Virus genome (UHGV): UHGV-1613375
Source: a virus
DNA length: 25,893 nt
Strand: one strand, 5' to 3'
The translations under genes and the position numbers were made by a program. How positions within the stretch are numbered: position 1 is the stretch's first letter; every line of letters starts with the position of its first letter. Below, one piece after another: positions 2,980 through 7,903 of this stretch. Below the pieces are notes generated by a model. It was not told the DNA's origin. It ran no database searches and saw only the letters and a program-made list of their open reading frames with translations.

Positions 2980-3315
2980 ATGCCTCATAACCCAAATACT
3001 TGGCCGGACTGGCTGGAGTTGTTCCAGAGCTGGTGGCGTGGAGACACCCCGCTGGGGGCAGTGATTATGTCGATCGTTATGGCTGGTTTGCGTATCGCCT
3101 ATTTTGGCGGAGGTGGTGGCTGGAAGCGAAAAACGCTCGAGATTTTGCTCTGTGGTGCTCTGACGCTGACTTTTGCATCCGCGCTTGAGTATGTCGGATG
3201 GCCTAAATCGCTTTCTGTTGCCATTGGTGGTGGCGTTGGGCTGATCGGTGTTGATGCCATTCGTGGAGCTGCAATGCGAGTAATCGGTAATAAGTTTAGT
3301 GGCTCTAAGGAGTAA
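2980..3315 (+). CDS. Holin, divergent lambda S-like, three predicted transmembrane segments
   Basis: 111 aa immediately upstream of the endolysin. Three hydrophobic segments and a charged C-terminus; the LR..Y.GG....K pattern resembles lambda S (recalled). Confidence 0.65.
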   Translation: MPHNPNTWPDWLELFQSWWRGDTPLGAVIMSIVMAGLRIAYFGGGGGWKRKTLEILLCGALTLTFASALEYVGWPKSLSVAIGGGVGLIGVDAIRGAAMRVIGNKFSGSKE

Positions 3316-3318
3316 TTT

Positions 3319-3795
3319 ATGCAGATACTAAATTCCCAGCGTAAAGCTTTCCTCGATATGGTGGCATGGTCAGAAGGAACGGATAACGGACGGCAGAAAA
3401 CCAGAAATCATGGTTATGACGTCATTGTAGGCGGAGAGCTATTTACTGATTACTCCGATCACCCTCGCAAACTTGTCACGCTAAACCCCAAACTCAAATC
3501 AACAGCCGCCGGGCGTTATCAGCTTCTTTCACGCTGGTGGGATGCTTACCGTAAACAGCTTGGTTTGAAAGACTTCTCCCCCAAAAGCCAGGACGCAGTG
3601 GCATTGCAGCAGATTAAAGAGCGTGGCGCTTTACCGATGATTGATCGCGGTGATATTCGTCAGGCTATCGACCGTTGCAGCAATATCTGGGCTTCACTGC
3701 CGGGGGCTGGTTACGGTCAGTTCGAGCATAAGGCTGACAGCCTGATTGCAAAATTTAAAGAAGCTGGCGGAACGGTCAGAGAGATGGAGGCATGA
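3319..3795 (+). CDS. R: Endolysin, lambda R-type lytic transglycosylase
   Basis: 158 aa, near-identical over most of its length to lambda R as recalled ([47 protein letters not shown]...). Confidence 0.95.
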
Positions 3796-4259
3796 GCAGA
3801 GTCACCGCGATTATCTCCGCTCTGGTTATCTGCATCATCGTCTGCCTGTCATGGTCTGTTAATCATTACCGTGACAACGCCATCACCTATAAAGACCAGC
3901 GCGATAAAAAAGTTAGTGAGCTGCAGCTGGCGACCGCCACCATTACTGACATGCAGCAGCGCCAGCGTGATGCTGATGCACTTGATGCTAAATACACGAA
4001 GGAGTTAGCTGATGCGAAAGCTGAAAATGATGCTCTTCGGCGCAAGCTTGATAATGGTGGTAGGGTGCTCGTCAAAGGCAGATGTCCAGTGCCAGCCACA
4101 ACAAAAGCCTCCGGCACCGCCAGCGTGGGCAATGATGCCACCGTCGAACTCTCTCCAATTGCTGGACGAAACCTTCTCGGTATCAGATCCGGAATTATCA
4201 GAGATCAAGCATCATTGAGAGCGTTACAGGAATATATTGACACTCAGTGTCGGAAGTAA
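3792..4259 (+). CDS. Rz: Inner-membrane spanin Rz (i-spanin)
   Basis: ATGA overlap with the R stop. N-terminus [31 protein letters not shown] matches lambda Rz (recalled); N-terminal TM segment followed by a coiled-coil-like region. Confidence 0.9.
4012..4218 (+). CDS. Rz1: Outer-membrane lipoprotein spanin Rz1 (o-spanin), embedded in Rz in the +1 frame
   Basis: [19 protein letters not shown]: signal peptide with lipobox Cys, then a proline-rich segment ([13 protein letters not shown]), closely resembling lambda Rz1. Fully nested inside Rz. Confidence 0.85.
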
Positions 4260-4325
4260 ACTCTTTTGCTGGAATAAATAGTTATTGCGAATAGGTGCTG
4301 CTAAATGTTGGTTGCTTGTGTAAAA

Positions 4326-4359
4326 TATAGTGGTAAGGTGTCTTTTTTATAGTGGTAAG
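4326..4359 (+). repeat. Two perfect 12-bp direct repeats TATAGTGGTAAG, 22 bp apart, immediately upstream of the second cargo ORF
   Basis: Copies at 4326-4337 and 4348-4359, each containing a -10-like TATAGT; the second ends 5 nt before the ATG at 4365. Confidence 0.6.
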
Positions 4360-4364
4360 TACGC

Positions 4365-4973
4365 ATGGACTATTTTTACATAGCAACTAAATCGCAAAAT
4401 CCTTGGGTTAAGTATAGGCCTTTGGCAGTAGGAGATTTAGCTAGCACCTCATTCCCAAATCCCTTTTTTAATTATTTCTTAAGTTCAAACATCCCTCCAA
4501 TACCAGTAAATGTTAACGGGCATCTAACTGACTATACGAGAATGCAGTGGCTTTATGGCCTAAAGACAGGGTCACTTACTACTAAGTGTTCTGTACAGGA
4601 TATAGCGGCAGTTGGTCAAGAATTGGCTATGCATTTTTGTAAATATACTAGAGAACTGATTTGGGAAGCCGTTCGAGTTGAATATTACCCAAAAAAGCCT
4701 TCAAGACAGAAATGCTTATGGGTTTCACAAGGTGAAGAAAGTCTTTACTATTGGATTTCGCAGTTGGGATTGGGGGACAATCAGACTGTGTTCAGAGTTG
4801 AGTTGGATGGAGTTATACATGAGGCGAGTGATGAACATTTGATGAATGACGATATACCGTATGATATTGCCTTAGAAAAAGCTCATAAATATTGGAGTGG
4901 TGAAATAGTTGATCCGTTAAAAAAGGAAATACTTTTTGAAGGAAATATGCGGATTCTAGAGCACATTTTATAG
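4365..4973 (+). CDS. Hypothetical protein, AT-rich cargo gene between lysis cassette and HNH/terminase; no recognisable motif
   Basis: 202-aa ORF in an AT-rich island (by eye) with AT-rich flanks, followed by a weak hairpin plus T6. No signal peptide, TM segment or catalytic motif recognised. Confidence 0.6.
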   Translation: MDYFYIATKSQNPWVKYRPLAVGDLASTSFPNPFFNYFLSSNIPPIPVNVNGHLTDYTRMQWLYGLKTGSLTTKCSVQDIAAVGQELAMHFCKYTRELIWEAVRVEYYPKKPSRQKCLWVSQGEESLYYWISQLGLGDNQTVFRVELDGVIHEASDEHLMNDDIPYDIALEKAHKYWSGEIVDPLKKEILFEGNMRILEHIL

Positions 4974-4992
4974 CCGCCTTCTGGCGTTTTTT
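4973..4992 (+). terminator. Weak terminator-like hairpin plus T-run after the cargo ORF
   Basis: CGCC(4975-4978) / GGCG(4983-4986), 4-bp GC stem with TTCT loop, followed by TTTTTT (4987-4992). Confidence 0.3.
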
Positions 4993-5044
4993 GTTGCCAT
5001 CACCATGGACAAACATCATCGTGATGATTGCAGGAAAACTTTAA

Positions 5045-5395
5045 ATGCCACCACGAACCCCAAAAGCCTGCCGTGTTCGCGGCTGCCGCAATACCACGAC
5101 TGATCCGTCAGGCTACTGCGAAAGCCACAAAAGCGAAGGCTGGAAGCAATACAAGCCAGGACAATCCCGTCATCAGCGCGGTTATGGTTCGAAATGGGAT
5201 GTTATCCGTGAACGTGTGCTCAAGCGTGACAAAGGCCTGTGTCAGTTATGTCTGCGTGCTGGTGTGGTGCGTGAGGCGAAAACCGTTGATCACATCATCC
5301 CTAAAGCGCATGGCGGCACCGATGCAGACAGTAATCTGCAGAGCCTGTGCTGGCCGTGTCATAAGGCGAAGACGGCCCGTGAACGGCTGAAGTAA
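5045..5395 (+). CDS. HNH endonuclease, terminase-associated
   Basis: 116 aa with Cys/His pairs (CRVRGC...C..H, CQLC...H.IP..HGG....NLQSLCWPCH), a classic phage HNH fold, located directly upstream of terS/terL as in HK97-like cos phages. Confidence 0.85.
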   Translation: MPPRTPKACRVRGCRNTTTDPSGYCESHKSEGWKQYKPGQSRHQRGYGSKWDVIRERVLKRDKGLCQLCLRAGVVREAKTVDHIIPKAHGGTDADSNLQSLCWPCHKAKTARERLK

Positions 5396-5480: not shown

Positions 5481-5520
5481 TATACCCGCGAAAAATGAAA
5501 TTTAACCAGGAGTGCCGCAT

Positions 5521-6015
5521 ATGGCTGGAACGGCGGGGCGTTCCGGGCGTCGCCCCAAGCCAACGGCGCGCAAGGCGCTGGCCGGAAACCCCGGCAAGCG
5601 AGCCCTGAATAAAGATGAACCTGTTTTTACGCCCATCAAAGGTGTTGAGCCACCGGAGTGGTTCGCTGAAGAAGATCTCCCTCTCGCCACGATCATGTGG
5701 CAACTGACAACCAAAGAACTCTGTGGTCAGGGCCTGCTGTGCGTGACTGACCTCGCGGTGCTTGAGCGGTGGTGCGTGGCCTACGAGTTCTGGCGACGTG
5801 CCGTGAAAAATATTGCCAGACAGGGCAACACCATCATCGGTGCAATGGGCGGCAGGGTCAAAAATCCGGAGCTGACCGCCAAAAAAGAACAGGAGTCCGA
5901 GATGAACAGTACGGGGGCAATGCTCGGACTCGACCCCAGCAGCCGCCAGCGTCTGATTGGCCTGGCGGGGCAGAAGAAAGCCACTAACCCGTTTCTGAAA
6001 ATCATCGAATCATGA
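5521..6015 (+). CDS. Terminase small subunit (P27-family-like)
   Basis: SD AGGAG at 5508-5512 with ATG at 5521; the track's start at 5512 is GTG. Basic N-terminus; ATGA overlap with the large-subunit start. Confidence 0.7.
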
Positions 6016-7745
6016 GCCGGAAATCTTACCCCAACGTAAATGCTGCCAATCAGTATGCCCGTGATGTCGTGCGCGGAAAGATTGTGGCCTGCCAGTTTGT
6101 GATTCAGGCCTGCCAGCGCCATCTTGATGACCTGATGGAGGAAAAAAGTAAGTTGTTTCGTTACCGCTTCGACAAGGACCTGGCTGAACGGGCCGCGAAA
6201 TTTATTCAGCTGTTGCCGCACACCAAGGGTGAGTGGGCATTCAAGAGGATGCCCATCACGCTGGAGCCGTGGCAGCTCTTTGTGATCTGCTGTGCGTTTG
6301 GCTGGGTCAATAAAGGCTCCCGGCTGCGCCGCTTCAGGGAGGTGTATACCGAAATCCCTCGTAAGAACGGCAAATCGGCAATCTCTGCCGGTGTTGCCCT
6401 GTATTGTTTTGCCTGTGATAACGAGTTTGGCGCGGAAGTGTATTCCGGTGCCACGACAGAGAAACAGGCGTGGGAAGTCTTTCGCCCGGCTCGACTGATG
6501 TGTAAACGCACACCCATGCTGACGGAAGCGTTCGGGATTGAGGTTAACGCCTCAAACATGAACCGTCCGGAGGATGGCGCGCGGTTTGAACCGCTGATCG
6601 GTAACCCCGGTGATGGTTCATCACCCCACTGTGCGGTGGTGGATGAATATCACGAGCACGCCACCGATGCGCTTTATACCACGATGCTTACCGGGATGGG
6701 GGCGCGACGTCAGCCACTGATGTGGGCTATCACCACCGCCGGATACAACATTGAGGGGCCGTGCTACGACAAACGGCGGGAAGTCATCGAGATGCTCAAC
6801 GGTTCGGTACCCAACGATGAACTGTTCGGGATCATCTATACCGTTGATGAAGGTGATGACTGGACCGACCCGCAGGTGCTGGAAAAAGCCAATCCAAATA
6901 TTGGCGTGTCGGTTTATCGCGAATTTTTGTTAAGTCAGCAGCAGCGTGCGAAAAATAACGCCCGTCTGGCAAACGTCTTTAAAACAAAACACCTCAATAT
7001 CTGGGTGTCGGCGCGTTCGGCGTATTTCAACCTGGTGAGCTGGCAGAGCTGCGAGGATAAATCATTGACCCTTGAGCAGTTCGAGGGGCAGCCGTGCATT
7101 CTGGCCTTTGACCTGGCGCGTAAGCTGGATATGAACAGCATGGCGCGACTTTATACCCGCGAGATTGACGGTAAAACGCATTACTACAGTGTGGCCCCGC
7201 GTTTCTGGGTACCGTATGACACGGTGTACAGCGTCGAGAAAAATGAAGATCGACGGACAGCCGAACGCTTTCAGAAATGGGTGGAAATGGGCGTTCTGAC
7301 CGTTACCGATGGTGCGGAGGTGGATTATCGCTACATCCTCGAGGAGGCCAAAGCGGCGAACAAAATCAGCCCGGTCAGTGAGTCACCCATCGACCCCTTC
7401 GGGGCGACCGGGTTGTCACATGACCTTGCTGATGAAGACCTGAACCCCATCACTATCATTCAGAACTACACCAACATGTCCGATCCGATGAAAGAGCTGG
7501 AAGCGGCGATTGAATCGGGGCGCTTTCATCATGACGGCAATCCCATCATGACCTGGTGTATCGGCAACGTGGTCGGCAAAACCATTCCTGGTAACGATGA
7601 TGTGGTGAAGCCTGTCAAGGAGCAGGCGGAAAACAAAATCGATGGTGCGGTTGCACTGATTATGGCGATCGGTCGGGCAATGCTCAAAGAACCCGACGAT
7701 TTCCTCTCATCTCTTGATCCGGACGATGCTCTCTTAATTCTATGA
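6012..7745 (+). CDS. Terminase large subunit
   Basis: 577 aa in canonical position after TerS; ATPase plus nuclease-sized protein with acidic motifs ([16 protein letters not shown]) consistent with terminase. Confidence 0.85.
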
Positions 7746-7903
7746 AATCAATAATTGCTGATGTTATCGGGCTGGCTGGTTTTGGCCTGCTTACGTGCGG
7801 GTTTTACCTGCAGTTTGGTATGGCTCCGGCTCTGATGCTGTCCGGCGGTTTACTGCTGGTGGGCGCACTGGCTATGGCCAGAAGGGGGGCGCGTGCTGCT
7901 TGA
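7742..7903 (+). CDS. Small hydrophobic ORF (53 aa, two predicted TM helices) between terminase and portal
   Basis: ATG at 7742 overlaps the TerL stop (ATGA) and its TGA stop overlaps the portal start, suggesting translational coupling. Encodes [53 protein letters not shown]. Below the 60-aa cutoff of the ORF track. Confidence 0.35.

Follow-up and report, generated by a model that had tools for sequence, protein, structure and literature searches.

A DUF2441 gene of the ADP-ribosyltransferase fold class as variable cargo between the lysis cassette and the packaging module of an Escherichia coli prophage

The window analyzed here is the whole 25,893-nucleotide (nt) stretch of the virus genome UHGV-1613375, and the element in question is the AT-rich gene at positions 4365 to 4973, for which a preliminary description, made from the letters of the DNA alone, had recognized no motif in the 202-amino-acid (aa) product. 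We found that this gene is dispensable accessory cargo in a variable slot between the lysis and packaging genes and that its product very probably belongs to the DUF2441/BC2332 family, which has an ADP-ribosyltransferase (ART) fold. We give about an even chance to the reading that we favor for the gene as a whole, namely, that this prophage cargo encodes a stand-alone DUF2441 protein of ART fold that uses NAD+ through Glu188, is expressed late, and plays a role in conflict.

The identity of the gene is not new in itself, as RefSeq already catalogues the product (WP_021562677.1) as "DUF2441 domain-containing protein" and the fold class of the family was assigned years ago. DUF2441 was placed in the ART clan by Pfam (PMC7955679), "BC2332-like" is entry d.166.1.6 of the ADP-ribosylation superfamily in SCOP (PMC3000352), and the MCSG authors obtained a "certain" ProFunc template match from 2AUA, the crystal structure of BC2332, to the catalytic site of diphtheria toxin (PMC3024214).

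Family and fold of the product

The product scored 44.1 bits against the Pfam family DUF2441 (PF10386), for which the gathering cut-off is 25 (E value of 2.7e-11, residues 90 to 179), and the precomputed PF10386 label was carried by 28/28 homologues. A profile of 113 diverse family members aligned over the full length with PDB entry 2AUA (BC2332 of Bacillus cereus; E value of 1.5e-33), which was the sole match in the PDB profile searches; these linked no other ART family by sequence, and an NCBIfam scan of the product gave no meaningful match. The AlphaFold2 model built from 24 homologues was single-domain, with a mean pLDDT of 85.3. A Foldseek search with this model ranked Arr second, and the split beta-sheet core of ARTs was recognizable in the product by structure comparison. 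Alignment of the family profile with an approximate sequence of Arr-2 by hhalign was not significant (probability of 1%); it covered only a G-D-h-h-x-T-G stretch located after strand 1 and offers at most a lead. The structure and profile searches thus did not bear out the view of the protein as motif-less, since it passes the DUF2441 threshold; the absence of a signal peptide, which had also been remarked upon, agrees with the hydrophilic N terminus.

BC2332 shares family and fold with the product at only 21 to 23% identity and is a chromosomal protein of Bacillus, whereas the product studied here is phage cargo. The minimal ARTs Arr, CC0527/DUF952, DarT, and Tpt1/KptA have no detectable sequence relationship to it, and DUF2441 differs from them by a long helical insert (residues 59 to 107) carrying invariant Arg and Glu residues. 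Phage-borne enzymes of ART fold that act in host takeover or counter-defense are represented by T4 Alt/ModA/ModB and AcrIF11, all of which belong to other ART families (R-S-E or other), and, compared with phage-encoded ARTs, the product is not fused to MuF or any other head-targeting domain. A published survey noted that phage ARTs often adjoin terminase and portal genes (PMC9503650); neither DUF2441 nor BC2332 occurs in its main text. Aravind and colleagues reportedly assigned BC2332 to the basal ART clades, a placement that we do not count as evidence; the name is absent from PMC8120803 as well.

That the open reading frame is a genuine gene, as opposed to one arising by chance, is indicated by an end-to-end match of its product to PHROG 9842 (E value of 2.4e-130), by the 1,428 family clusters retrieved in a profile search (50% identity level, E value up to 0.001), by a dN/dS of 0.07 against a 78%-identical homologue (dS being saturated near 2), and by its intact state in 50 genomes. 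It is under purifying selection. Homologues in Enterobacterales were 31 to 99% identical to the product. Among 50,697 isolate phage genomes, a megablast search with the DNA of the region found no match, and tblastn with the product and two distant family members detected a homologue by sequence in only one, the temperate phage phiES15. A structure search of viral proteins added three further uncharacterized matches at 12 to 16% identity.

The slot between the lysis and packaging genes

Annotation of the flanking genes confirmed the position given in the preliminary description, between Rz/Rz1 and the HNH/terminase module. The features of this part of the window are as follows.

2980-3315, holin, upstream of the gene
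3319-3795, GH24 endolysin, upstream of the gene
3792-4259, + strand, i-spanin Rz; the o-spanin Rz1 lies inside it (4012-4218)
4040-5044, no strand, variable prophage segment, from blastn of the window against the prophages L002 to L006
4260-4364, + strand, upstream spacer of 105 nt, GC content of 0.352
4365-4973, + strand, coding sequence of the DUF2441/BC2332-like protein of predicted ART fold, 202 aa, ATG start, identical to RefSeq WP_021562677.1
4974-5044, + strand, downstream spacer of 71 nt, GC content of 0.437
5045-5395, + strand, HNH endonuclease, opening the packaging module (HNH, P27-type TerS, TerL)
5512-6015, P27-family small terminase TerS, downstream of the gene
6012-7745, large terminase TerL, downstream of the gene

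The contrast in composition that had been judged by eye was clear in numbers as well. The gene has a GC content of 0.378 (0.322 at third codon positions [GC3]) in a window of 0.513, and both it and its spacers differ from the neighboring Rz (0.500), HNH (0.556), and terS (0.587) genes.

We compared the slot with that of five sister prophages (L002 to L006) whose flanks are 86 to 97% identical to the window. Similarity was lost within Rz (about 4021 to 4039) or as early as the last part of the endolysin gene (3770); it was regained at 4986 in L004 and at 5044/5045, the ATG of the HNH gene, in the other four relatives. The interval between Rz and HNH holds Iss, a Bor homologue, on the opposite strand in L002, a 252-aa protein of unknown function in L003, a GrlR-family protein in L004, nothing but a 26-nt gap in L005, and two genes of unknown function on the reverse strand in L006. 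This variable occupancy agrees with the earlier proposal of a recurrent moron site, and the absence of the gene from the slot in all five relatives rules out a conserved core phage gene. When the 2.7-kb stretch from endolysin to TerS was used as a query, about 5,000 E. coli records matched at least part of it and both flanks were found in many E. coli prophages, and the full stretch was found only in the same 50 genomes that carry the gene.

Those 50 carriers, out of 5,426 complete E. coli genomes, contain the 735-nt region at an identity of at least 99%, always on the chromosome and in a single copy, and several of them are labeled O25b:H4-ST131. The prophage that hosts the gene combines lambdoid early and lysis genes with an HK97-type head and a contractile tail. 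We saw no inactivating decay: the reading frame was full length, ungapped, and at least 99.5% identical in 50/50 carriers. The 90% protein cluster of the product (P0179 to P0184) also contains members of 114, 143, and 43 aa on hundreds of contigs, starting at the internal methionines M89, M60, and M160, respectively. Decay was considered as their origin and rejected, as the short members seem to reflect differences in the annotated start site. One genome was checked, that of DA33137, whose 5.26-Mb contig is recorded for the 114-aa member P0180; its DNA differs from the window by 1 base and carries the full 609-nt frame, which RefSeq calls as such. The inconsistency in annotation probably arises from the poor coding score of the AT-rich 5' part.

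The same placement recurs in other phages. Homologues at 41 to 78% identity lie directly after spanin genes and before packaging genes in unrelated backbones with different terminases, namely, in phiES15 (gp27), in a metagenomic prophage with a DUF2280-type TerS (L009/L010), in the IMG/VR contigs L042, L045, and L048 to L051, and in a Citrobacter prophage (L013). A spanin gene is immediately upstream of the homologue in nine enterobacterial phage loci, with a gap of only 35 to 40 nt in phiES15 and L049, and the DUF2441 gene is on the strand of the late genes in every phage locus examined. Specifically, phiES15 gp27 (YP_006590032.1) and the homologues in L042, L045, L049, L009, and L013 share subfamily, position, strand, and a GC content of about 0.40 with our gene and differ from it in backbone and terminase type, some of them having His at position 5. 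In the IMG/VR contig L046 (2633 to 6615), the gene occupies the other cargo slot of these phages, with the holin on one side and, on the other, a Q-like antiterminator of 272 aa that contains a zinc finger of the DnaJ type, and a KAP-family NTPase that matches the PADLOC candidate PDC-S20 (E value of 1.5e-82) is located just upstream of the antiterminator. The slot can also hold multigene cargo, as indicated by a 485-aa protein without a Pfam family (starting MQVTIDGV...) that follows the DUF2441 gene in L042 (7850 to 9307) and L045 (6770 to 8230); this pair may travel together.

The interval is the one that holds bor in lambda, iss in related phages, and tai in phi80, between Rz/Rz1 and the packaging genes or cos, and like the DUF2441 gene these are dispensable and variably present. 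The differences are in strand and product. Iss and Tai are opposite-strand genes with expression in the lysogen, whereas the DUF2441 gene shares the strand of the late genes; Bor/Iss are lipoproteins of about 97 aa with a lipobox, and the 202-aa product has neither a lipobox nor a signal sequence. For tai (orf63; tail assembly inhibition) of phi80, which the lysogen expresses from the strand opposite to the late genes, defense from this slot was shown experimentally (PMC11364771). Membership of our protein in the Tai family was considered, given the shared slot and similar size (203 aa), and rejected, as the comparison with TaiEcA gave a BLASTP E value of 0.9 and an hhalign probability of 0.2%. 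A Pfam search with TaiEcA found no family.

The neighboring slot of the sister prophages, between Q and the holin, is also variable and contains Kiwa (KwaA/KwaB), a TIR protein, or a methyltransferase, which makes this prophage lineage a rich two-slot carrier of defense cargo. In L003 and L004 (positions 1 to 840, - strand) and in L005 (58 to 873, - strand), this slot holds Kiwa (KwaA plus a KwaB-like protein) or the TIR protein. In the window, it is filled by a first AT-rich cargo gene (1492 to 2883, + strand, GC content of 0.398) that lies between a Q-like DUF1133 antiterminator gene and the holin and encodes a 463-aa P-loop ATPase. This protein matches AAA_16/AAA_22, more weakly ORC/Cdc6 and STAND, and PHROG 6841 of unknown function; no convincing PADLOC match was obtained for it (the best was mad8, E value of 2e-4), and we regard it as a candidate stand-alone defense ATPase. 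As a partner of the DUF2441 protein in one system, it was rejected, since it recurs beside no homologue outside this prophage.

Candidate active site and expression signals

Residue conservation was counted over 166 diverse family sequences. Glu97, Glu101, Arg104, Trp130, Tyr176, and Trp177 are invariant, and Asn32, Pro112-Ser113-Arg114, Trp119, Gly149, Glu188, and Gly193 are conserved at 95 to 99% (P112, S113, R114, and E188 in 165/166 each, Gly193 in 164/166, and Trp in 158/166 at position 119); all of these residues are kept in the product. In the model, the order of secondary structure elements is a strand at 3 to 8, small strands with the helical insert at 59 to 107, a strand at 118 to 122, a helix at 124 to 134, a hairpin at 140 to 155, a helix at 166 to 177, and a hairpin at 187 to 200. 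Three codons mark the positions of most interest.

4377-4379, + strand, Tyr5 in strand 1 ("FYIAT"); the family consensus is His ("F-H-I-x"), at what would be the NAD-contacting His position of the ART HxS/T motif
4719-4721, + strand, Trp119 in the motif P-S-R-x-x-C-h-W, on the strand after the long helix; candidate for the aromatic second position of the ART triad
4926-4928, + strand, Glu188 in the motif E-x-L-F-x-G, at the start of the penultimate strand (187 to 200 in the model); candidate catalytic Glu

In this order, the motifs would fit an ART core, with F-H-I-x in strand 1, the aromatic residue of P-S-R-x-x-C-h-W as the second element, and Glu188 as the strand-5 Glu, and Glu188 is the likely catalytic residue judging from its position and conservation. 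The strand-1 His, which would correspond to that of the H-x-S/T motif of ARTs as described previously (PMC8120803), is present in 81% of the 166 family sequences and in at least 90% of those in alignment A3, and Tyr is found in 20/166. BC2332 has His here (2AUA reads "YHIVT" at strand 1) and departs from the product elsewhere, with Tyr at the position of Trp119 ("PSRLSCLY") and Phe at that of His152, a His found in the product and in most of the family. On a neighbor-joining tree, the change from His to Tyr occurred in at least two to three separate branches of the enterobacterial clade, in which His and Tyr forms interleave, and every other invariant residue, including Glu188, is fixed in the Tyr-bearing clade. 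Such a recurrent change with the other invariant residues fixed suggests that Tyr is tolerated and that function is kept. The His is nevertheless a defining feature of ARTs, and the product departs from it.

As for expression, a scan of the + strand of the upstream spacer (4260 to 4364) found no full match to a sigma-70-like promoter; a consensus scan of this kind is crude, and in AT-rich DNA it can miss promoters that are weak or under H-NS control. The Shine-Dalgarno sequence of the gene is weak. The spacer does contain two exact 12-nt direct repeats, TATAGTGGTAAG, at 4326 to 4337 and 4348 to 4359 (22 nt apart), each with a TATAGT hexamer resembling a -10 element; they may be parts of a promoter, a site bound by a regulator, or the result of a small duplication. 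It is found only with this allele, as homology to the 78%-identical homologue starts at 4364 and does not include the repeats. Rfam searches of both spacers gave no match at E values up to 1, and folding of the upstream spacer was no better than that of shuffled sequences (z score of +0.95). Downstream of the gene, at about 4974 to 4992, there is a weak hairpin (a 4-bp CGCC/GGCG stem) followed by a U-run (-7.5 kcal/mol, z score of -0.84), which was not called by the terminator scan. At the same place, the L042 homologue has a terminator hairpin of 9 bp (-13.4 kcal/mol, z score of -3.66), and in its light the hairpin of the window looks like a weakened or decayed terminator.

Transcription of the gene probably comes from a Q-dependent late operon, which is the simplest reading of its location on the late strand in all phage loci, the lack of a promoter match in the scan, and the 35-to-40-nt gap to the spanin genes seen in relatives. 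Late-gene expression in lytic growth thus seems at least as likely as expression in the lysogen. At the start of the window, a DUF968/HNHc_6 gene (10 to 759, + strand) is followed by the gene of the DUF1133 protein (774 to 1352, + strand), which also matches Phage_antitermQ (E value of 1.1e-8) and is presumably the late antiterminator that would drive transcription through both cargo slots.

Possible roles of the protein in conflict

A role in conflict, whether between phage and host or between phages and with either polarity, is probable for this gene, considering that the two slots of its relatives hold Iss, Kiwa, TIR, and methyltransferase genes, that phi80 carries tai in the same slot, and that homologues have Septu and PDC-S20 as neighbors. 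That the product is an active NAD+-using enzyme is a proposition that we hold to be evenly balanced. In the mechanism we favor, NAD+ would be bound in a cleft formed by strand 1 (with Tyr5 in place of the usual His), the strand of the P-S-R-x-x-C-h-W119 motif, and the Y176-W177 helix. Glu188 would then promote transfer of ADP-ribose to a target or another form of NAD+ cleavage, and the conserved Arg/Glu face (R96, E97, E101, R104, and R114) might bind that target. Expression from the late operon would place its action in lytic development or in phage-phage or phage-host conflict, unlike that of a classical conversion gene expressed in the lysogen.

Several observations weigh against this reading, in addition to the crudeness of the promoter search. 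The triad Y5/W119/E188 was assigned from motif order, and in strand 1 the product has Y-I-A, i.e., Tyr for the His and Ala at the alcohol position of H-x-S/T; changes at this motif abolish NAD+ binding in some ARTs. A comparison of the product with the defense models of PADLOC-DB v2 gave 0 families at E values up to 1. No function of any DUF2441 member is reported in the literature searched, which also contains no biochemical or genetic data on any DUF2441 protein. Finally, a broadly useful function in the lytic cycle would be expected to be more widespread than one in 50,697 isolate phage genomes.

The state of strand 1 could also mean that the protein is an inert pseudo-ART that does not bind NAD+ and works through contact with a partner, such as a host or phage protein that it would block, and the recurrence of the His-to-Tyr change in the enterobacterial phage clade can be read in the same way. 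We consider this rather improbable, as the retention of the other invariant polar residues, Glu188 among them, in the Tyr clade and a dN/dS of 0.07 would be unexpected if catalysis had been lost, and the interleaving of His and Tyr forms on the tree suggests that the two residues are functionally interchangeable.

The neighborhoods of homologues outside phages also bear on another alternative, in which the protein is made in the lysogen as a single-gene defense (exclusion or abortive infection) and, once another phage infects, would stop the invader either by ADP-ribosylating nucleic acid or protein of phage or host, like DarT or CmdT, or by depleting NAD+. This is close to the candidate roles proposed in the preliminary description, and we retain it as a possibility of a tentative kind. 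A DUF2441 homologue adjoins the Septu genes ptuAB on a Citrobacter/Phytobacter chromosome (L014, 3493 to 5621, with E values of 2.7e-162 for PtuA and 2.3e-104 for PtuB; also L015) and, in a different orientation, on a Klebsiella IncF plasmid (L059, 3293 to 5318; 5.5e-111 and 1.1e-70). The PtuA subtypes differ, so the two associations are independent. The neighborhoods of about 25 more distant homologues (from Bacillota, Bacteroidota, Nitrospira, and others) are heterogeneous, with integrases, HTH regulators, one type I restriction-modification system, IetS, SoFic, and mad2 near some of them. Together with these genes and the KAP NTPase defense candidate of L046, a lysogenic defense would account for the use of the slot as a moron and defense site (Iss in relatives, Tai in phi80, and the contents of the Q-holin slot), for the AT-rich spacer and remnant terminator that the gene has of its own, and for the occurrence of the family in prophages and cellular mobile DNA, as it is nearly absent from isolate phages, which are mostly virulent. 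It is at odds with the orientation of the gene, which always follows that of the late operon and in this differs from bor/iss and phi80 tai, with the promoter and PADLOC scans mentioned above, and with the lack of any antitoxin, macrodomain, or sensor conserved in 43 loci, given that a constitutive ART toxin would need some other control.

That last point comes from clustering the open reading frames of the 43 loci and comparing 149 neighbor proteins with Pfam and PADLOC. No conserved partner gene emerged, as only spanin, endolysin, and holin recur, in the enterobacterial phage subset, and no Macro, ARH, or other antitoxin partner recurs among the Pfam families of the neighbors. A two-gene or DarTG-like toxin-antitoxin layout, considered as a candidate, is excluded by this result; DarTG has a macrodomain antitoxin, and none stands beside the DUF2441 homologues examined.

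A further alternative is a small-molecule or RNA-end-modifying ART, similar to Arr or to Tpt1/CC0527, that would ADP-ribosylate a small toxic compound or a phosphorylated end of RNA or DNA rather than a protein. Such an enzyme could let the host or the phage tolerate an antibiotic-like molecule, or it could serve to mark nucleic acid or repair it. According to published classification, the basal ART clade functions in RNA repair and acts on small molecules and soluble derivatives of ADP-ribose (PMC9503650, PMC8120803), the nearest structural neighbors point in the same direction, and the invariant or nearly invariant R96, R104, and R114 would suit phosphate binding. The family is also widespread on chromosomes of free-living Bacillota, Bacteroidota, and Nitrospira, without phage genes. 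However, the hhalign comparison with the approximate Arr-2 sequence was not significant, as described above, and no antibiotic resistance or RNA repair gene recurs beside the family, so we judge this alternative unlikely.

A toxin aimed at the animal host of the bacterium and released at phage lysis, like Shiga toxin or phage-borne ART toxins, seems most improbable. The location in a late operon beside lysis genes is that of stx, and the MCSG authors speculated that BC2332 is a toxin on the basis of its diphtheria toxin template match (PMC3024214). However, the product is only 202 aa long and single-domain, lacks a signal peptide, a B subunit, and a translocation domain, and begins with a hydrophilic N terminus (MDYFYIATKSQNPW), and the family is common in environmental, nonpathogenic bacteria.

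Returning to the late-expressed, NAD+-using conflict protein, a broader proposal, and a speculative one that we would not expect to hold in full, is that DUF2441/BC2332-like proteins are unrecognized stand-alone conflict effectors of ART fold and that the copy in the window is a single-gene anti-phage defense or late counter-defense protein that modifies nucleic acid or protein with NAD+ at an unusual Tyr-Trp-Glu site. If true, this would be the first function for a family that comprises more than 1,400 sequence clusters and has had an orphan crystal structure since 2005, and it would concern a subfamily that repeatedly fills the two lysis-flanking cargo slots of different temperate enterobacterial phages and, in this case, a prophage carried by clinical ST131 strains. 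As a single small gene with one candidate for the catalytic residue, E188, and with natural variation between His and Tyr where NAD+ is presumed to bind, it would be an easy experimental target. If the protein were inactive or had no phenotype, the gene would be an ordinary item of prophage cargo.

Elsewhere in the window, the end of the TerL gene and the start of the portal gene are overlapped by a 53-aa hydrophobic open reading frame (7742 to 7903, + strand), listed in RefSeq as a hypothetical protein, and a small membrane protein is unusual within a packaging module.

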